Assembly: GCF_003334765.1 (NCBI RefSeq) | Contig: NZ_QOWT01000047.1 | DNA: 21,426 nucleotides | Source of the DNA: Escherichia coli | Lineage (GTDB): Bacteria > Pseudomonadota > Gammaproteobacteria > Enterobacterales > Enterobacteriaceae | Direction: 5' to 3' (one strand) | Shown: positions 9,708 to 17,580 of the stretch, piece after piece | How the letters are laid out: each line of letters opens with the position of its first letter | Numbering within the stretch: position 1 is the stretch's first letter | Translations under genes and position numbers: made by a program | The notes under the pieces: generated by a model | The model's input: the letters and a program-made list of their open reading frames with translations, nothing else | What the model was told of the DNA's origin: nothing | Databases searched by the model: none

Positions 9708-10553
9708 TTGAACAATTGGTCACCAGAGCATACAAAAGTCATCAAGAGCTGGTTTAAGATTGATACATATCGCAAATTTGAAGACCTCTCATTGATTCAG
9801 TTCTACCATGAGATATGGGCCCGTAAATTGTTCTTTAAGGAGTATCGGGAAGAGTTTGAGAGCAGAGCACTTGCGGGTTACTTCTCAAAAATTTTTAGTG
9901 GCAATCCTTTTTTAATTGAAGAAGGACAACTGGGATACATGACTCCTGCCAACAAACTTTTTCAACCTCCCCATTTCTTTCTCACAACTCTTGATCGCCT
10001 TGCTGAAACGAGCATTATTGCAATGCAACGTGGAGGTTTTCTTTGGCATGAAGGTGATAATTATTCTATAAACGCAGAGCTTCGAGAAGAATCACTTTCA
10101 GACATTATGCCAGATCAGTTTACACGAACGATCATGTTCGAGATTGATCTGGCAAGTGGCACAGACGAAGAGATTGCAGAGTCGCTTAAAGCTGCATTAC
10201 CGCAGTGGCGTAAAGTTAAGGGTATTGATGAAAACCCATTGGAATCTGTTCGTTTTGGATACGGAACTATCAAGAAACTCATCAGTTATCGTGTAATACC
10301 TATGCTTGATATCCTGGTGTGGGCAGCCGTTAAAAAAATCCGTGTCTCTGACGACAGGTTATCCAGACTACTATATACAGACGATGACGAAGAAAGCGAA
10401 ATGAGACAGTCCAGCCAAATCAAAGATACCGACAGGCCTTTGGCTCTTAAATCCTGCACAACTGACTTTATCCGACAATTCCATTACTTCATGAACAAAA
10501 ACAGCCATTTAAAGCAAATGAAAGTCTCTGATGTAATGAAACTATCGGATTAA
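9708..10553 (+). CDS. Hypothetical island protein (281 aa); possibly inovirus Gp2-like family
   Basis: Long ORF starting at TTG 9708 with GGTGGAG RBS about 8 nt upstream; no in-frame ATG until about codon 78. Positioned immediately upstream of an AlpA-family gene. Family assignment is from recall only. Confidence 0.55.
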   Translation: MNNWSPEHTKVIKSWFKIDTYRKFEDLSLIQFYHEIWARKLFFKEYREEFESRALAGYFSKIFSGNPFLIEEGQLGYMTPANKLFQPPHFFLTTLDRLAETSIIAMQRGGFLWHEGDNYSINAELREESLSDIMPDQFTRTIMFEIDLASGTDEEIAESLKAALPQWRKVKGIDENPLESVRFGYGTIKKLISYRVIPMLDILVWAAVKKIRVSDDRLSRLLYTDDDEESEMRQSSQIKDTDRPLALKSCTTDFIRQFHYFMNKNSHLKQMKVSDVMKLSD

Positions 10554-10597
10554 GAGTTAATTAATAACTGTCTGTTTTTTTATTATAAAAATAAACT

Positions 10598-10628
10598 AAA
10601 AGCACTACTGTAAATGGTGCTTTTTTTT
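10598..10628 (+). terminator. Rho-independent terminator candidate
   Basis: AAAGCAC-(loop)-GTGCTTT hairpin followed by a run of 8 T, 45 nt after the stop of 9708-10553. Confidence 0.5.
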
Positions 10629-10835
10629 GCGATTTTTACTTTAAACCGGCCATTTTTACACTTGCTATAAAACAGGGGAATTTCAGCTACTCTCAAGTTC
10701 CCTTGTTCTGTACTGCACCAACTTCGAGAAAACCATCCTGCACAGCAGCGAAGAACCTCCGCTTCAGGAGCTTCGCTCCTTTCTTTTCCCAACTGCTCGT
10801 ATAGTGACTTCACCGCAACGACAAGGGATAACGAA

Positions 10836-11042
10836 ATGAAAAATCAAGCAACCCGCCTCATACGCTTACCAGAAGTTCTCGAACGAACTGGCTACGGAAA
10901 AGCCTGGATCTATCGTCTGATCAACGATGGCAAGTTTCCTGCTCCTGTCAAAATTGGAAGTCGTGCAATAGCTTTCGTTGAAAGTGAGATTGATAGCTGG
11001 ATTCAGTCTGTTATCGAAACAAGTCGAAATAATGTTGCTTAA
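10836..11042 (+). CDS. alpA: AlpA-family phage/island transcriptional regulator (MerR-like HTH, 68 aa)
   Basis: MKNQATRLIRLPEVLERTGYGKAWIYRLINDGKFPAPVKIGSRAIAFVESEIDSWIQ matches the AlpA signature (LxRLxEVxxxTGxSxxxIYRLIxxGxFPxPxKxGxRAxAWxESEIxxWI). AAGGGA RBS 8 nt upstream of ATG. Confidence 0.85.
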   Translation: MKNQATRLIRLPEVLERTGYGKAWIYRLINDGKFPAPVKIGSRAIAFVESEIDSWIQSVIETSRNNVA

Positions 11043-11062
11043 TTGAATTTAGGAGAGATTTT

Positions 11063-11362
11063 ATGACTATCGAAGAATTTGTGAATGAAGAAAACCATAT
11101 GTGTAATCTGGGCCAGGAACTATTCTTTAAAATTTTCGAGCCTGAATCGATTTATAATTTACCCAATAACGAGTTTAATAAAGAAATAATATATTGGCTC
11201 AGTCAGTATCTTGTCGGAAATTTGATACAACCTTTAGACGCGATCTCAGAGCTTAATGCTTCCAAACAAATATATGTTTACGAGACTTGGTTTTCGCTAA
11301 TTAAATGCCCTGATGAAATGAAACTCTTGGCGAAGCGGATAATTGAATATTTATTGGATTAA
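11063..11362 (+). CDS. Hypothetical small protein (99 aa)
   Basis: ATG with AGGAGA RBS 7 nt upstream, 20 nt after the alpA stop (likely co-transcribed); AT-rich; no recognisable motif. Confidence 0.55.
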   Translation: MTIEEFVNEENHMCNLGQELFFKIFEPESIYNLPNNEFNKEIIYWLSQYLVGNLIQPLDAISELNASKQIYVYETWFSLIKCPDEMKLLAKRIIEYLLD

Positions 11363-11574
11363 GAAATTCATATGGCAATGCAAAGTTTTGCTGCATATTT
11401 TAGATTAAAACGTTAAAGAATAACTTGCATTATTTTTATGACCGTTCTTTTGCAAGGCAGTGAGATGGTTTTAGGTGGGTTGGGTGTGCATAATATTAAT
11501 AGTGTTAGGACGGTTTTTAGTATTAAGAAGTAATAATAATAGCCATTGGTGAAAATTATGACGGGATTTTTACC

Positions 11575-11886
11575 ATGACATTTCATATTAATAAGTATAG
11601 GAAAGTTAAAATGAATAATTCAATCATAGTACCAGAAGATAAAGATTTTGTATGTGCGTTTGCGACTTCACCGAATAGCTTTTATGAGGCTATTGAATCC
11701 TATCGTAATTATGTAGATCTAGTCCAAGAGATAGAGTTCGAGCACGTCTTTCTTTATTTATTGTTTTCTATAGTGGTCAATGGTAGTACAGATATTACGA
11801 TTAATGATGAAGTACGAATGTGTATTGAGCAGCTTGTCTATGAAAAAAATAGTATCAGAAATAATAATGCAGATAAAAAGATGTAA
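11575..11886 (+). CDS. Hypothetical small protein (103 aa; alternative start at 11611 gives 91 aa)
   Basis: ORF with possible internal start MNNSIIV… preceded by AGGAAA; followed by a strong terminator hairpin. Confidence 0.45.
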   Translation: MTFHINKYRKVKMNNSIIVPEDKDFVCAFATSPNSFYEAIESYRNYVDLVQEIEFEHVFLYLLFSIVVNGSTDITINDEVRMCIEQLVYEKNSIRNNNADKKM

Positions 11887-11907
11887 AGGCTGTAATAAAT
11901 TATCATG

Positions 11908-11945
11908 GGTACAGACAGCACAAGTCTGTACCTTCTTATTTTAAT
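11908..11945 (+). terminator. Rho-independent terminator
   Basis: Perfect 9-bp stem GGTACAGAC / GTCTGTACC with 7-nt loop, followed by TTCTTATTTTA. Confidence 0.6.
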
Positions 11946-12057
11946 TCAACAGATAATGATACATGAAAATTATGTGCTTTTGATAGTGGTCATCTGGTTT
12001 TCTATAGTAAACATTATAGGATATAGGTTATCCTGAATTTTAATATTATGCTCTTTT

Positions 12058-12363
12058 TTATTTAAAAGAGCTGAAAAATACAGGATTTAAATGGTGTTGG
12101 TATTTAAACTCAGTAGGTATAGTAACACTCGCATCAATCAGTTCTGTGATAGCCTGATAAAATTGAGTGGGTGTAATATGTATCCCTTCTTGCTGTGCTA
12201 TGGGCGTAACACGATGAAAAATTAGGTAAACAATGCTCTTATCTGGCTTATACGACGCGATTAATGTAAGCAACCAGAATACATTGTGAATAGTAGTGTT
12301 AAGATTATGACTTTCAACTGATGATTGATTATTTTGAAAGTAAGTGGAGAGTCTTTTTTGCAT
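12058..12363 (-). CDS. Hypothetical protein (101 aa)
   Basis: ORF downstream of and co-directional with 12428-12991; weak RBS; no motif recognised. Confidence 0.35.
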   Translation of the reverse strand: MQKRLSTYFQNNQSSVESHNLNTTIHNVFWLLTLIASYKPDKSIVYLIFHRVTPIAQQEGIHITPTQFYQAITELIDASVTIPTEFKYQHHLNPVFFSSFK

Positions 12364-12427
12364 AAAGGTATCGTTTTTTTGTTAATGTTATCACTCGCGT
12401 GGAGAAAATTACCACGCTGTAATGTTT

Positions 12428-12991
12428 TTAAAATGGAATGCCGTCTGCAGGATTTCGTCTTCTGGAGTTTTTAACTGATTTTGTTTTACTCCAGGCACGA
12501 TAAAAATTAAACGAATTGGCAAAATCTTCTGTCTCCAGTCTGGATTTTCTGAATTTATCCATCAGATCTTCATTGAAACGACGAGGAATTCCCTTAACGC
12601 ACAAGTTTGAATTCAGATATACCTGATTATCTATGGTGTCACGAATAAGTATTTTTTTTCCAAATAACTCTTTGAATGCACGTGAAACATTTGATTTATT
12701 CAGCCCAAGCTCTTTGGCAGTACGTGACTGTGAAAAATCAGGAATAATATTACCGTAATCAATGGCTGAGAAGAGATAAATCACAATTCTAAATGCTGTA
12801 GGCGTCAAATCCATTCTGGCGAGTGTCGCCATATTACCTTTAAATACCATTGAGAAATCGTCCTTGAAGGACGTCTTTTTATAGCTGGTTGCTTTAATTT
12901 TTATTTCTTCTAGATCTTCGGGCATAACCTCTAATGCTTCTGCAATAATGGATTTTTGTTCTTTAGTTAATACAACACTTGTGATTGACAT
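12428..12991 (-). CDS. Winged helix-turn-helix DNA-binding protein (187 aa), RepL-like / plasmid replication-associated candidate
   Basis: AGGAG RBS 5 nt upstream of ATG. Central segment …TPTAFRIVIYLFSAIDYGNIIPDFSQSRTAKELGLNKSNVSRAFKELFGKKILIR… has typical wHTH spacing. A divergent AT-rich region and tandem direct repeats lie 460-600 bp upstream. Family is inferred from motif pattern, not from a search. Confidence 0.6.
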   Translation of the reverse strand: MSITSVVLTKEQKSIIAEALEVMPEDLEEIKIKATSYKKTSFKDDFSMVFKGNMATLARMDLTPTAFRIVIYLFSAIDYGNIIPDFSQSRTAKELGLNKSNVSRAFKELFGKKILIRDTIDNQVYLNSNLCVKGIPRRFNEDLMDKFRKSRLETEDFANSFNFYRAWSKTKSVKNSRRRNPADGIPF

Positions 12992-13452
12992 AATGGCTCC
13001 TTTTTTATTGTTGTGATTACAGATATGGCATATTTAATTTATTTGTCAATGGTTTTGATGATATTATTTTAATTATATCTTATTTGAATTTTTTATCCGT
13101 TCTTTGGTGGTGGTAATAGGTTGTAAAATTTGAAACGAGGGGTGCTAAATTTAACCATCACCTGTTATGTGATTGATAATTTTTGGTGCTGAAATTAACA
13201 ACGGCATATTTTGTATAATCATATGATTTTATTAGATAATTTTTGATTTTGATCTGCAAGATAAAAGAGTGATAAAGAAATAAGAAACCACAGTTTTGCA
13301 TTTGATCGATACTCAAGGCCTTGGTGTACCTGATGAAAACATTTTTATTATTGCTTTTCTTAAATAATATCATTTGTAAATTGAAGCCTGCGCAACTGTG
13401 TGTTACGCCCCATTGGGCTTCAGAACATCACTATAGTGTTTTCAGTCAGTAT

Positions 13453-13600
13453 AAATACGCTTCGCGCACGAGTTCACAGTATTTAGGTTTACTGTCATTA
13501 AAAATACGCTTCGTGCAGAAGTTCAGAAAAATGGGGTTAGCTGTCAGCACAAATACGCTTCGCGCAAAAAAAAATCAGGAGGCTAAGTTGATCGAGAAAG
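13453..13600. repeat. Three direct repeats at exactly 49-bp spacing sharing a 16-bp core AAATACGCTTCG(C/T)GCA (iteron-like)
   Basis: Cores at 13453-13468, 13502-13517 and 13551-13566. Units 1 and 2 also share AGTTCA and CTGTCA blocks further along the 49-bp unit; unit 3 keeps only the core. Non-coding context. Confidence 0.7.
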
Positions 13601-14030
13601 CGAACACAGATACATGATTTACCCGTTTGCTGACTACGGCTCACGCCGGGACCCTTCGGAAAAACCCTTTCTGCTTCAGCGAGTGAGTGCTGCGGGCACT
13701 CAGAGGCGCTGCCAGGGAGACAAAATTAAGTTTTTCAACTGTTTGGTAAAAATAATTAACATTTATAGGTAGTCGGGGCGTAAGCCAGTGCGTAGCACGC
13801 TCTCAAAAAATATTCCTGTGGGTTTCTTATCTGCAATAGGGAAATAACTCAGATAATTGATATATGAAAAAACAATACAATCGGGAAGACACAACTTTAG
13901 CACAGTAAAAGCTATTTGTATTTATGAGGAATAAAATATATATGAATAATAAAATATTTTTATTTTGCTATTGATTTTAATTTTTAAGATGATAGTACTT
14001 AATTATAAAAACAAAATAATGGAGGAAATT

Positions 14031-14456
14031 ATGAGTGCTATTAATGTGTTATCTCAGGAGGAAAAATTTATACATGTTGTTGATAAATTTATAACCCATA
14101 ATCACAACGGCGTTAATAACAATGTCTTTTATAAAAAACTTTATGTTCTCTTCGCCGGATATCATCTGAAGTATTTTTATTCACGGGCGCAATATCGCAA
14201 TTCGTGTTATCACGTTGATAATATCATGCAGATGTTTATGGGTGTCGTTTCTACCCTGAAGACCCCTCTGCTCAGGCAACTCGCAAACAGTGACACATTG
14301 CTGCATTGCCTGAATTCGCTCGTGAATTATATTTCAGGCAATCTGGATGAAGCAGAGCACATTTATGCTGATTTACTGGCACAGTATGAAAAGAAACGCA
14401 TTGCACGTTCTCTGGCTTATACACCACCAGGATCCGTGGTCAGGAAAAGACTGTGA
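14031..14456 (+). CDS. Hypothetical protein (141 aa from ATG 14031; ORF track begins at 13965)
   Basis: GGAGG RBS 8 nt before ATG 14031 (MSAINVLSQ…). C-terminal tail …EKKRIARSLAYTPPGSVVRKRL resembles the tail of the ankyrin protein at 17683-18636. Confidence 0.5.
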   Translation: MSAINVLSQEEKFIHVVDKFITHNHNGVNNNVFYKKLYVLFAGYHLKYFYSRAQYRNSCYHVDNIMQMFMGVVSTLKTPLLRQLANSDTLLHCLNSLVNYISGNLDEAEHIYADLLAQYEKKRIARSLAYTPPGSVVRKRL

Positions 14457-14539
14457 GACATCGGAAATGCGCCGGACAAGGCAGAGTATGGCAGAGTGAC
14501 ATAAAAGCAGTCGTTTCCCGCAAGATATTACCGGGCATT

Positions 14540-14573
14540 AAAAAGGCAGGATCCACCGATTTGGTGTCCTGCC
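14540..14573. terminator. Bidirectional terminator hairpin between convergent genes
   Basis: GGCAGGA-(15-nt loop)-TCCTGCC perfect 7-bp stem, flanked by AAAAA on the 5' side (T-run on the minus strand) and a T-rich stretch on the 3' side. Confidence 0.5.
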
Positions 14574-14597
14574 TGGCGGGATTATTTTATTGTGGTC

Positions 14598-14918
14598 TTA
14601 CTTATCAACGACCTGCCAGCCATCATCTGTTTTGACCAGCTTGACAGCCGCTGTGCGTTTTTCGTTATCGACAACAGCTGTTACATTGCATTTATAGCTT
14701 TTATCCGATAGTTTTTCGCAGTCGTGTTTTTTGACTGATTTTAACTTCCGCAGCATGTCAGGCGTGATATCGTTTCTCGCTATGGATTTAACGATGGCAT
14801 TCGTCTGCTCCACGACCTTATTCATCGCAGTGTAAATATCCTGCTCAGACGGTTCACTGGTGCAGCCGGTCAGCAAAAAAATGGACGCAATGAGTGTGGT
14901 AAATGCATATGTTTTCAT
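14598..14918 (-). CDS. Small lipoprotein (106 aa)
   Basis: Signal peptide with lipobox LLTG|C (MKTYAFTTLIASIFLLTGC). Mature part ends …AAVKLVKTDDGWQVVDK. Confidence 0.7.
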   Translation of the reverse strand: MKTYAFTTLIASIFLLTGCTSEPSEQDIYTAMNKVVEQTNAIVKSIARNDITPDMLRKLKSVKKHDCEKLSDKSYKCNVTAVVDNEKRTAAVKLVKTDDGWQVVDK

Positions 14919-14944
14919 AAAATAATCCCAGACGGTAGAGTACG

Positions 14945-15343
14945 TTATTGAAAAAGGCCGGTTTTCATCTTGCTGTTGTTTTCAGAGAACGTCCACTTGC
15001 TGACGGTTTCGCCTTTAAATTCGATTTCCAGCGTTTTGGCCTGCGTCTGTGAACCCCCGGTCAGCAGTCCAATCACGGGAATGAATGTGGTGGCATCAAA
15101 CTGATTGTTGTCCATCGAATAAGTCCATTGTTCATTGCCACTATCAAGTGTAGTTTTGGTTTCGGGCTGACCGAATGCGGTAATGATTTCTGATTTCGTT
15201 GTTTTATTTTTGATGATTTTCGACTGCAGACTTTGTGATGTTTCTTTTTTTAGATGCTGGTTGCCTGATGTTGAACAGCCAGAAATAAGTAAAGAAGAAA
15301 TAAAAAACACAGAAATCATGAATCTGTTCATAAGTTTTCTCAT
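14945..15343 (-). CDS. Lipoprotein (132 aa) with BamE/SmpA-OmlA-like motif
   Basis: Lipobox LISG|C. Segment …EIITAFGQPETKTTLDSGNEQWTYSMD… resembles the BamE-type LGxP…W.Y motif. Possible alternative start at M5 (15331). Confidence 0.65.
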   Translation of the reverse strand: MRKLMNRFMISVFFISSLLISGCSTSGNQHLKKETSQSLQSKIIKNKTTKSEIITAFGQPETKTTLDSGNEQWTYSMDNNQFDATTFIPVIGLLTGGSQTQAKTLEIEFKGETVSKWTFSENNSKMKTGLFQ

Positions 15344-15380
15344 ATTAATTTTTTATGTTTGCGGTGGTGTGAAATTAATA

Positions 15381-15656
15381 TCATCTTATAAAAACAACTC
15401 TGTCTGCATATTTCTTTTTAATAATGCAGATAAGAATAATGACGCTGGCAAAAAACGTAATGACTGAGGCAGGAGTGCTGCCGGTCAATGAAAACACTAA
15501 CCAGGCGAGAGCTAATGCCACGAATTGAAACAGGAATGCCACACTGAGTGGACTTTCACCATAGGCCACTTTTGCATGGCAACCTTTGCAAACCCGCACA
15601 CCGTGTGGGCTTTGTGTAAAGCAGAAAGGGCAGCTAATCGTTTTATTATCCATCAT
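15381..15656 (-). CDS. Zinc-ribbon membrane protein (91 aa)
   Basis: N-terminal CPFC…(8)…CKGC four-Cys zinc-ribbon motif followed by two hydrophobic helices (FLFQFVALALAWLVFSL; VITFFASVIILICII). Confidence 0.6.
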   Translation of the reverse strand: MMDNKTISCPFCFTQSPHGVRVCKGCHAKVAYGESPLSVAFLFQFVALALAWLVFSLTGSTPASVITFFASVIILICIIKKKYADRVVFIR

Positions 15657-15733
15657 GACTCCGTAGCCTGATTTAAGGTGATGTATTTTTGAACATTTTC
15701 GATGAATGAACTGCTTTAGTAAAATTGCTTGTA

Positions 15734-15806
15734 CCGATCGATGGATCTCAGGCGATAGGTTATATCTATTATAACTAGATTATCGATATATAAAAACGAT
15801 CGATAT
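15734..15806. promoter_or_regulatory. Cluster of three GATC sites within four ATCGAT palindromes, 80-150 bp upstream of the zinc-ribbon/lipoprotein gene trio
   Basis: CCGATCGATGGATCTC at 15734-15749 and TATCGATATATAAAAACGATCGATATC at 15780-15806. Dam-site clustering in a promoter-proximal region; a regulatory role is inference. Confidence 0.3.
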
Positions 15807-15841
15807 CTTATTGACTATCACTAAAGTATGGACTAGCTAAC

Positions 15842-17077
15842 TTATGGTGCAGGATGGTTGTTGTTTTTAAATGATTGTTCTTTATTGGTATTTGTTGTCA
15901 TGGGATGACAGGGTGTCAGAATATGTAGGTGGAGGATTTGGTGGAAAGGATGTGCAGTGGCATGTAACAGAGACATGCCTCTGCGCCTGAGAAGTGCCAC
16001 AATATGGACGAGCAATACAAGCCATGAATACAGACGACGCTGGCGGGGTATCTGACGAGCTGTATTGTGCAGATTGCTCCTGAGCTGGATGATACCCACT
16101 GTCTCCTGTTGTCTTTCCAGACGAATTTTTTCTTCAAGCTGATGGATTTTCTCCAGAATCGTTTCCCGGTTTGCAGCCTGCTCTTCAGACTCGCATGATG
16201 GCACTGGCACTGGCACTGGCACTGGCACTGGCACTGGCACTGGCGCGGTTGTAGGTTCTATTGGCCTCTGGGCTTCTTTCAGTAAACTCAGATGCTCAGG
16301 CGTAAAATCAATCAGTGCTTGCAGGGAAGACCAGCCATATTTTTTACCCAACTGAGATGCTTTAAAGGCAATACCCTGGTATTGAAATGAAAATCCACTC
16401 ATTTTACCCGTAGTGGCGATATTGGGTTTGCAGGTCACTCCTTCCTGTTCCAGTAAGCGAACAAAGGTTAGTAAATCGGGATGGTGTGTTAATGCATTGT
16501 CGAGCAGGGCCTGCAACAGTGACTTAGGGCAGGGAGCTGCTGTGCGTTCTGCCATCATCAGTTCATTACGGGAAGGCTTCCTTTTATCCTGGCGGCTACT
16601 GCCGGTTACACCCGTAGTTTCGGTGAGGCCGTGTACTCTCTCCAGCTCACTGATAATCCGTGTGCCGATAAGATTTTCATTTTTCCCCAGGTACAGTTTT
16701 CCACCGACCATGTTAATACGACTTGCAATGATATGAATATGCTGCCCATCCGGATCATCGTGCATGATATAGCAGCGAAGATGGGTGTCAGTGAAGCCCA
16801 TTCGGGCCATATAATCGTCAGCGAATGCTGCCCACTGTCTGTTTGACAGTTTCTCACCCTTTGGCAGGCGAAGTGAATTATGCCAGACAGGTTTGGCGAC
16901 ATCGGGACGCAGCAGTCGGGTGCCTTCAAATTCACTTATAAGCTCAGCAGCAGTGCTACCCGTCATGTTGCCACCGATGACATAAGGCGTGATTTTGTGG
17001 TGAGAACCTGACTTCAGGCTATAAATAACCACACCTGTGAATTGTTTACCCCTTTTTATTTTCTGCATGCCTTTCAT
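15842..17077 (-). CDS. Plasmid mobilization relaxase (MobA/VirD2-like relaxase domain), 411 aa
   Basis: N-terminal candidate catalytic Tyr (…VVIYSLK…) and histidine-triad motif HDDPDGQHIHIIASRIN (HxDxDxxHxHxxxxxxN). Start ATG overlaps the mobC stop (ATGA). Central (PV)7 linker. C-terminal about 80 aa is unusual in composition and the gene may be 3'-degenerate. Confidence 0.8.
   Translation of the reverse strand: MKGMQKIKRGKQFTGVVIYSLKSGSHHKITPYVIGGNMTGSTAAELISEFEGTRLLRPDVAKPVWHNSLRLPKGEKLSNRQWAAFADDYMARMGFTDTHLRCYIMHDDPDGQHIHIIASRINMVGGKLYLGKNENLIGTRIISELERVHGLTETTGVTGSSRQDKRKPSRNELMMAERTAAPCPKSLLQALLDNALTHHPDLLTFVRLLEQEGVTCKPNIATTGKMSGFSFQYQGIAFKASQLGKKYGWSSLQALIDFTPEHLSLLKEAQRPIEPTTAPVPVPVPVPVPVPVPSCESEEQAANRETILEKIHQLEEKIRLERQQETVGIIQLRSNLHNTARQIPRQRRLYSWLVLLVHIVALLRRRGMSLLHATAHPFHQILHLHILTPCHPMTTNTNKEQSFKNNNHPAP
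16201..16242. repeat. Perfect hexanucleotide simple-sequence repeat (GCACTG)x7, in-frame in the relaxase gene (encodes PVPVPVPVPVPVPV)
   Basis: Seven perfect tandem copies read directly from the sequence. Confidence 0.9.
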
Positions 17078-17481
17078 GGGTCTGACTCCAGAAATGTTGA
17101 GGGAATAAGGTGATCCCTGAGAGTTTTGATTTGTCTGCGCAGGGCGAAGAGTTCTGTACGGGTCAGTTCGCTGTCAGGGCTTTTGCTGTCGAGATGACTC
17201 AACAGGTAGTTTAAATCCTGTGAAAGGCTGCCAAGTTTTATCCATGCTTCACGATTGATTTCTGGCAGAACCGGCGGGAGTTTATTCAGGGAAGCCATCC
17301 TGAGCCATTCTCCTTTTTTATACTGACCTCTTTTACTGTCGAGAATAATTAATTCTTCTTCATTTAATCTGACACTGATGCAGTGATGTCGTATTTCATT
17401 CTCAGGAAATTTGTCAGTATGGAATTTACCGCGTTTTGATACTCTGGTTATATCATCATCATTACTCATGTCACTGTTCAT
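17074..17481 (-). CDS. MobC-family mobilization/relaxosome accessory protein (135 aa)
   Basis: Segment …WIKLGSLSQDLNYLLSHLDSK… fits the MobC (L.kiGnNlNQiar) motif. Sits immediately upstream of and translationally coupled to the relaxase. AGGAT RBS. Confidence 0.7.
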   Translation of the reverse strand: MNSDMSNDDDITRVSKRGKFHTDKFPENEIRHHCISVRLNEEELIILDSKRGQYKKGEWLRMASLNKLPPVLPEINREAWIKLGSLSQDLNYLLSHLDSKSPDSELTRTELFALRRQIKTLRDHLIPSTFLESDP

Positions 17482-17580
17482 AGTTATCCTTTTATTTCAT
17501 GTTTATTACTACAGATAACCGATGAAATGAATAAGTCAAGTTGTTACGGGATAAATAATTTAATTATCTGGATTAAAAAA

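Follow-up and report, generated by a model that had tools for sequence, protein, structure and literature searches.

A coding hexanucleotide repeat of variable copy number in the interdomain linker of an Escherichia coli relaxase

A relaxase gene of Escherichia coli contains a perfect hexanucleotide tract that differs among isolates by whole repeat units. The tract is a true coding, in-frame variable-number tandem repeat (VNTR). Very probably it is a slippage-driven microsatellite located in a length-tolerant interdomain linker, and the relaxase that carries it is intact and presumably mobilised with the aid of a helper element. The DNA examined here, hereafter termed the window, is a stretch of 21,426 nucleotides from E. 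coli contig NZ_QOWT01000047.1.

The repeat tract and its copy number among isolates

On the plus strand of the window, positions 16201-16242 read (GCACTG)7. Tandem Repeats Finder places the array at 16199-16244 with a period of 6, 7.7 copies, 100% matches, and a score of 92, and among the ten rows that this program returned for the window the hexamer tract was the only perfect array. A 24-mer of the repeat has four exact matches in the window versus none in 100 dinucleotide-preserving shuffles, and the perfect repeat is far above chance level. The relaxase gene is encoded on the minus strand, which had been left unstated when the repeat was first described. On this coding strand the tract takes the register (CCAGTG)7 at 16202-16243 and specifies (Pro-Val)7 as amino acids 279-292, with the seven CCA GTG codon pairs followed by Pro-Ser-Cys-Glu. 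The original prediction, which had been made from the letters of the window, gave the coordinates, repeat unit, copy number, dipeptide, and gene identity, all of which proved right by direct reading of the sequence, Tandem Repeats Finder, the open reading frame, and a match to Pfam family PF03432.

A search with a 351-bp sequence that has the tract at its centre gave matches in 130 of the 5426 complete E. coli genomes. Fifty-nine complete E. coli genomes have flanks identical to those of the window, and their tracts fall into nine length classes that are separated by multiples of 6 bp. These classes comprise 4 units (one genome), 6 units (7 genomes), 7 units (17), 8 units (11), 9 units (6), 10 units (3), 11 units (6), 12 units (4), and 13 units (4), and the Simpson diversity of tract length computed from these counts is ~0.85. 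Copy number for most of the 59 genomes was inferred from match length, and the tract sequence itself was read in one representative per class. Each of these representatives consists of a perfect CCAGTG run with identical 30-nt flanks. Alleles with a differing upstream flank carry 4, 7, 8, 10, 12, or 17 full CCAGTG units before a fixed CCA TCA.

Across complete E. coli genomes the total range is therefore 4-17 copies, in whole hexamers every time. Copy number is thus not invariant when compared across isolates, and the length differences are all multiples of 6, as expected from the earlier proposal that such a repeat would alter the length of the linker and keep the frame. An assembly artefact was rejected as the source of this variation because every length class save the single 4-copy genome is common to 3-17 independent complete genomes, and because the steps are made of whole units.

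Other alleles reveal changes of the unit itself. One E. coli allele contains (CCAATG)14, which encodes (Pro-Met)14 and, judging from its sequence, is a point-mutated unit that expanded in turn. In a contig of Klebsiella pneumoniae the tract reads (GTGCCA)5. A higher-order duplication is carried by a metagenome contig, in which four GTGCCA units, one GAGCCA, three GTGCCA, a second GAGCCA, and a final GTGCCA follow one another.

The smallest possible step was found within the Res13 pig-farm series, where 7 units are found in five genomes and 8 in a sixth. Two Res13 isolates, L010 and L020, are one hexamer apart and otherwise identical when aligned over 2 kb; the clonality of the series was judged solely from strain names, matching coordinates, and this 2-kb identity. 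Together with the whole-unit polymorphism among genomes, this single-unit step supports the earlier view of the repeat as prone to slippage. The interrupted allele GTG CCA TTA ACA GTG CCA GTG CCA, translated within the peptide SVPLTVPVPS, has no 6-bp insertion or deletion in 15 genomes that are at least 99% identical, and the interrupted linker has equal length in all 47 protein clusters that carry it. From these comparisons, pure tracts appear to slip whereas interrupted tracts do not, which is classical microsatellite behaviour.

The relaxase, its island, and its C-terminal region

The tract belongs to an intact gene for a relaxase or mobilization nuclease of 411 amino acids (15842-17077, minus strand), as indicated by its open reading frame, Pfam, the RefSeq coding sequence, and its invariant residues. 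Amino acids 32-151 (16625-16984) match the MobA/VirD2-like relaxase family PF03432 with E = 3.6e-22. Positions 1598-20023 of the window share 99.93% identity with the chromosome of E. coli O157:H16 98-3133, in which RefSeq annotates the gene product as WP_000677822.1, an intact coding sequence for a "relaxase/mobilization nuclease domain-containing protein." Nicking and transfer are putative functions of this protein.

The gene resides within an accessory island that adjoins the ypjA/EhaD autotransporter gene. Its neighbours include an ankyrin-repeat gene, three small genes downstream, and a 135-amino-acid gene (17074-17481, minus strand) that was defined as an open reading frame, overlaps the start of the relaxase gene by 4 nt, and keeps its synteny in the allele L021. 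The best Pfam match of the 135-amino-acid gene is the NikA-like family PF21983, which is not significant (E = 0.14), and no significant family was found for it in Pfam, NCBIfam, or PHROG. On the basis of that weak match, its product is a possible relaxosome accessory protein. A candidate inverted repeat, considered as a possible oriT, lies at 17580-17608, upstream of the relaxase gene.

Of the 5426 complete E. coli genomes, 205 contain relatives of the 1.9-kb region. A plasmid origin of the locus was rejected because all 207 places occupied by these relatives are chromosomal and because a collection of 72,556 plasmids yielded a single partial match of 221 bp. No transfer apparatus is encoded within the window, and the island is therefore presumed to be mobilisable and not self-transmissible, with mobilisation presumably provided by a helper element.

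The architecture of the protein was predicted with AlphaFold2 from a 76-sequence alignment, with a mean pLDDT of 78. A folded N-terminal module (amino acids 1-270; 16268-17077, minus strand), for which pLDDT is mostly 87-97, is predicted to consist of an HUH-type relaxase domain (approximately amino acids 1-150) and a second alpha/beta domain (approximately 170-270). This module is also delimited by a fold match and by remote homologues. In the PDB, the minimal relaxase domain of R1162 MobA (2ns6; probability 0.99, E = 3.8e-3) provides its sole specific fold match. A sequence search of the PDB with the relaxase returned no relaxase match, and a match between the Pro-Val run and a polyketide synthase linker (E = 0.48) was set aside as spurious.

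The module is followed by a proline-rich interdomain linker, RPIEPTTA-(PV)7-PSC (amino acids 271-296; 16190-16267, minus strand), which was assigned from pLDDT and the family alignment. Amino acids 274-296, which contain the tract, have pLDDT values below 50, and the tract is thus predicted to lie within a disordered linker between the relaxase module and a C-terminal helical region. The latter (amino acids 297-386; 15920-16189, minus strand) is basic, rich in His and Leu, and family-specific, as judged by AlphaFold2, conservation, and composition. It is predicted to form a long helix (298-341) and two shorter ones (345-365 and 376-386), with block-mean pLDDT values of 52-83 over amino acids 301-380 and 44 for 381-390. 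AlphaFold2 and the alignment define a disordered C-terminal tail (amino acids 387-411; 15845-15919, minus strand) that ends in NNNHPAP, an end point found family-wide.

When 1.84 billion representative proteins were searched exhaustively, 3572 relatives of the relaxase were recovered. For nearly all of these, the alignment covers only amino acid 1 to approximately 250-265, and their C-terminal extensions differ widely in length. Because remote relatives stop aligning at approximately amino acid 260, the tract can be placed exactly at the junction of a widely conserved relaxase module and a C-terminal region that, by the same alignments, is specific to the family. In a family-wide alignment of 121 sequences, the linker is a hot spot for insertions and deletions.

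The last 80 amino acids had been described in the original prediction as atypical, and this oddity of composition is real: they include 9 His, 13 Leu, and 8 Arg, with a net charge of +9. The relaxase had further been suggested to be evolving or possibly in decay; on the latter reading, the repeat and the odd C-terminus would reflect drift toward a pseudogene. The unusual composition is one point in favour of decay. Another is the faster evolution of the tail. When 20 E. coli alleles were aligned by codon, deep comparisons (pS about 0.5) gave pN/pS values of 0.34-0.48 for the tail versus 0.15-0.19 for the catalytic domain, and shallow comparisons, which involve few substitutions and are noisy, gave 0.78-0.96 for the tail. 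The excess of changes at third codon positions is likewise weaker in the tail than in the N-terminal domain (35:25:46 vs. 24:13:63 for the three positions). In addition, one strain (H22) has an IS2 element inside the matched region, between the two aligned pieces.

However, the region after the repeat aligns cleanly within the protein's own family, and the claim of decay falls. The best 120 database homologues, from E. coli, Klebsiella, Enterobacter, Salmonella, Citrobacter, Raoultella, and Cronobacter, are 399-413 amino acids in length, align over 99-100% of the query, and share the frame and the HPAP terminus. On average, these proteins are identical to the window protein at 90% of amino acids 1-160, 83% of 161-270, 94% of 297-331, and 85% of the last 80 amino acids, and the linker (271-296) is the least conserved region of the family with a mean of 71%. 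Twenty-four alleles read as DNA (20 E. coli loci and L021, L023, L024, and L025) have a frame that is open to the same stop, and no length variant of frameshift size was seen among the 130 genomes matched by the tract query. The C-terminus is predicted to be helical, with the pLDDT values given above.

The catalytic residues are also preserved. In the 76-sequence alignment, which includes remote relatives, little or no variation is seen at Y19, H113, and H115, and H106 is nearly invariant. All four are present in the window protein, in which the motif HDDPDGQHIH spans amino acids 106-115 and supplies the His triad H106/H113/H115. The window protein keeps every invariant residue of this alignment, among them R9, Y19, H66, H115, and R120. 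The comparisons suggest that the tail is under constraint that is weaker than that on the catalytic domain, yet probably purifying, and that its composition is a conserved property of the family and not the product of a frameshift. By these sequence criteria the gene is intact and not decaying, and we regard drift toward a pseudogene as extremely improbable. Because the tract is not a sign of gene decay, the island is still regarded as potentially mobilisable.

Origin of the length variation and competing explanations

Slipped-strand mispairing is most likely the mutational mechanism, and it is favoured because the units are codon-identical, the changes involve whole units, and a single-unit step has been captured. 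Across seven identical CCAGTG units, the nascent and template strands would re-pair out of register during replication, and whole 6-base units would thereby be added or removed. One unit corresponds to two codons (Pro-Val), and slippage would never break the frame and would change only the length of the linker. A disordered, proline-rich linker would tolerate many lengths, so that the products of slippage could persist in the population. With two codons per unit and a linker predicted to be disordered, the length variants remain in frame and are probably close to neutral. The repeat has hardly any self-complementarity (fold z-scores of +1.1 and +1.6), and hairpins would therefore not be needed for this mechanism.

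Linker length might instead serve as an adaptive tuning knob by which the reach or relative geometry of the DNA-bound relaxase module and the C-terminal region is set. The latter might contact a coupling protein or oligomerise, and slippage would then rapidly re-tune the efficiency of mobilisation or compatibility with helpers. An extended X-Pro segment spans ~3.1 Å per residue, the value for polyproline II, and tracts of 4 and 17 units could thus differ by ~80 Å if the Pro-Val run is extended. This wide range is consistent with such a role, as is the maintenance of a pure tract across several genera and in no fewer than five divergent backgrounds, and alternating X-Pro runs also occur at the same domain boundary in three remote homologues, P0121, which has (PA)5, P0154, and P0220. 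However, X-Pro runs were found in just 16 of 150 remote homologues, only these 3 of the 16 being at the boundary occupied by the tract, and most remote homologues have no repeat. Moreover, the commonest linker type in the family (47 of 121 aligned sequences) is short and interrupted, and it is equally conserved, from which it follows that long tracts are not required. Adaptive tuning is therefore a doubtful explanation for the variation, and near-neutral slippage remains the preferred one.

The sequence next to the tract has features of its own. A stretch of ~100 nt directly downstream of the tract in the coding sense (16100-16201, minus strand) is nearly invariant in allele comparisons, synonymous sites included. 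When alleles are compared, identity is 66-87% over the 100 nt upstream of the tract and 94-100% over the 100 nt downstream, and divergence at third codon positions is 0.01-0.07 for amino acids 286-315 versus 0.12-0.33 elsewhere. The codons of the tract are themselves unchanged in alleles whose flanks are 15-35% different, and across genera. Either this codon retention or the invariant flank could point to selection or recombination beyond passive slippage, and the tract and flank may represent a crossover patch for the exchange of modules or the site of a nucleotide-level element.

If the former applies, the tract and its invariant flank would constitute a patch of identity at which N-terminal and C-terminal modules are exchanged, and the tract would be maintained or homogenised in this way as well as by slippage. 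Besides the jump in identity across the tract and the trough in third-position divergence, the patterns of three alleles agree with this possibility. L013 is similar to the window in amino acids 1-160 and in the tail (pS 0.07-0.09) and divergent in amino acids 161-270 (pS 0.54), and L015 and L019 are divergent in their N-terminal and middle parts (pS 0.38-0.56) with a window-like tail (pS 0.07). Relaxase alleles thus appear to be mosaic, and the near-invariance of the downstream flank remains unexplained. On the other hand, the mosaic structure was recognised from pS values by region, a conserved stretch can be a consequence and not a cause of exchange, and a functional element at the nucleotide level would yield an equal trough. 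The 351-bp tract query found two copies of the locus in only one genome, and opportunities for recombination between alleles therefore look rare. A recombination junction is accordingly an unlikely account of the tract. We would give a little less weight still to the broader proposal that the tract and the invariant 100 nt form a conserved joint for shuffling modules between island lineages while also re-tuning spacing for different helpers. If true, this arrangement would amount to a contingency-like device for a mobile element.

A nucleic-acid element or an overlapping gene hidden in the tract and flank, comparable to the overlapping mob genes of some plasmids, would also explain the trough at synonymous sites downstream of the tract, and alternative frames are open for 83-84 codons in the window allele. 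This explanation is nonetheless very improbable. A second gene overlapping the last third (3') of the relaxase gene was rejected because both alternative frames contain stops in several alleles. Similarly, a hairpin or other structured nucleic acid was rejected because folding was no better than that of shuffled sequences for either the repeat, with the scores given above, or the flank (z-scores of -0.9 and +1.8), and because the only Rfam matches in the window are to tRNA. Slippage in a length-tolerant linker thus remains the reading that we favour.

Uses of the tract and comparison with known systems

With nine alleles among 59 genomes that share the same flanks, the tract provides a highly discriminating length marker for the island and its host strains, with applications in resolving outbreaks. 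It also calls for caution in annotation and clustering, given that one gene can appear under many protein accessions that differ in Pro-Val units alone. Furthermore, the tract lies where the conserved relaxase module gives way to the family-specific C-terminal region, and its alleles offer a natural linker-length series with which the importance of spacing for relaxase function can be tested.

The tract is an ordinary kind of microsatellite, and its presence in this relaxase is a new example. It most closely parallels the coding hexanucleotide VNTRs exploited for MLVA typing of E. coli and Salmonella (PMC3877011, PMC3407997), with which it shares perfect 6-bp units inside an open reading frame, gain and loss of whole units, many alleles, and single-unit steps between very close isolates. 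Highly variable E. coli loci of this type have been described, such as CVN014 (PMC3877011). The tract, however, resides on an accessory island that only about 130 of the 5426 complete E. coli genomes carry, and it is therefore not a marker of the core genome. A full-text literature search for the repeat string returned no paper, and the CVN descriptions in these two reports (PMC3877011, PMC3407997) give no repeat unit or position. Nothing relevant was returned by a literature search that combined relaxases with tandem repeats or VNTRs.

Among relaxases, the protein resembles those of the MOBP type in its N-terminal HUH-type nuclease domain with tyrosine Y19 and the H-x-D...H-x-H motif (HDDPDGQHIH), in having R1162 MobA as its closest fold, and in the small overlapping gene that precedes its own. 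It differs from these relaxases in that it is short (about 400 amino acids), chromosomal, and equipped with a family-specific C-terminal region. Its bit scores against NCBIfam models fall far below the curated cut-offs for TraI/MobA(P) (52.2 vs. 250), Bacteroides MobB (57.5 vs. 400), and MbpB (41.7 vs. 400). Because of these low scores, the relaxase can be classified as a separate, uncharacterised subfamily that shares the domain superfamily and lies outside the three NCBIfam families.

The tract is also reminiscent of phase-variable simple-sequence contingency loci, in which a hypermutable repeat likewise occurs in a gene of mobile or accessory function. However, the unit of the tract is a multiple of three, and because all of its variants are in frame, there is no on/off switching and the locus does not belong to this category. 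A further parallel is found in TonB, whose spacer region consists of alternating (Glu-Pro)n and (Lys-Pro)n runs. Both proteins thus have an alternating X-Pro dipeptide run between two functional regions. In contrast to the TonB spacer, the run encoded by the tract is Val-Pro or Met-Pro and therefore hydrophobic and uncharged, has pLDDT values below 50, and varies in length within a species.

Sequence conservation and disruption within the relaxase locus

Directly 3' of the (GCACTG)7 tract, approximately 100 nt of the relaxase gene (positions 16100-16201, minus strand; about amino acids 293-326 of the protein) are nearly invariant, even at synonymous sites, when alleles of E. coli, Klebsiella and metagenome origin are compared. 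In the remainder of the gene, 12-33% of third positions differ between alleles, and the relaxase alleles have a mosaic structure around the nearly invariant stretch. Disruption of the locus was observed in a single strain, E. coli O141:H4 P13-6 (NZ_CP080223.1, positions 1124589-1127831), wherein the match to the 1.9-kb query region is stretched to 3.2 kb because an IS2 element separates two matching pieces.

Neighbors of the relaxase gene

Three small genes are located immediately 3' of the relaxase gene on the minus strand (14598-15656). One encodes a 91-aa protein that carries a Cys-rich motif at its N-terminus and a hydrophobic segment, and the products of the other two, 132 and 106 aa in length, are putative lipoproteins whose signal peptides end in ...SGCS and ...TGCT. 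Family searches conducted with these products yielded significant matches for none of the three. The gene order, with the relaxase followed by products of 90, 128 and 106 aa, is kept in L021, a divergent allele.

On the other side of the relaxase gene, an inverted repeat of 13 pairs (GGGTATAC...GTATACC) followed by a T-run is present at 17580-17608 on the minus strand, approximately 100 nt 5' of the 135-aa gene located ahead of the relaxase gene. This candidate element was flagged by a consensus scan only; an oriT or operator would be expected at such a position.

Additional repeats in the window

Three imperfect direct repeats of approximately 49 bp (core ...AAATACGCTTCGCGCA...; TRF 2.6 copies, 76% matches) span positions 13438-13566 on the plus strand, within a stretch of about 1 kb for which the matching RefSeq genome has no gene annotation. 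These repeats could be iteron-like or regulatory. The window also has a second in-frame repeat region, a degenerate and imperfect 6/12/18/42-bp repeat (CCAAAT/CCAAAG/CCAGAC...; 68-87% matches) at 8245-8325 on the plus strand, which resides inside the ORF (4550..9259) of a 1569-aa ypjA/EhaD-type autotransporter gene.

Ends of the window relative to E. coli O157:H16

A tRNA gene with a CAT anticodon (1569-1644, plus strand) was called as Met by ARAGORN and scored 73.8 bits with the Rfam tRNA model. Because identity to the O157:H16 98-3133 chromosome begins within this gene, at position 1598, and that reference has a tyrosine recombinase gene past the tRNA gene, the tRNA gene looks like an integration site at which strains differ. 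At the right end, positions 20024-21426 diverge from the reference, which carries an IS3 element at that place. In this end lies an ORF (20776..21372) that heads toward the window edge and encodes a Walker-A-like motif (GFGKT).
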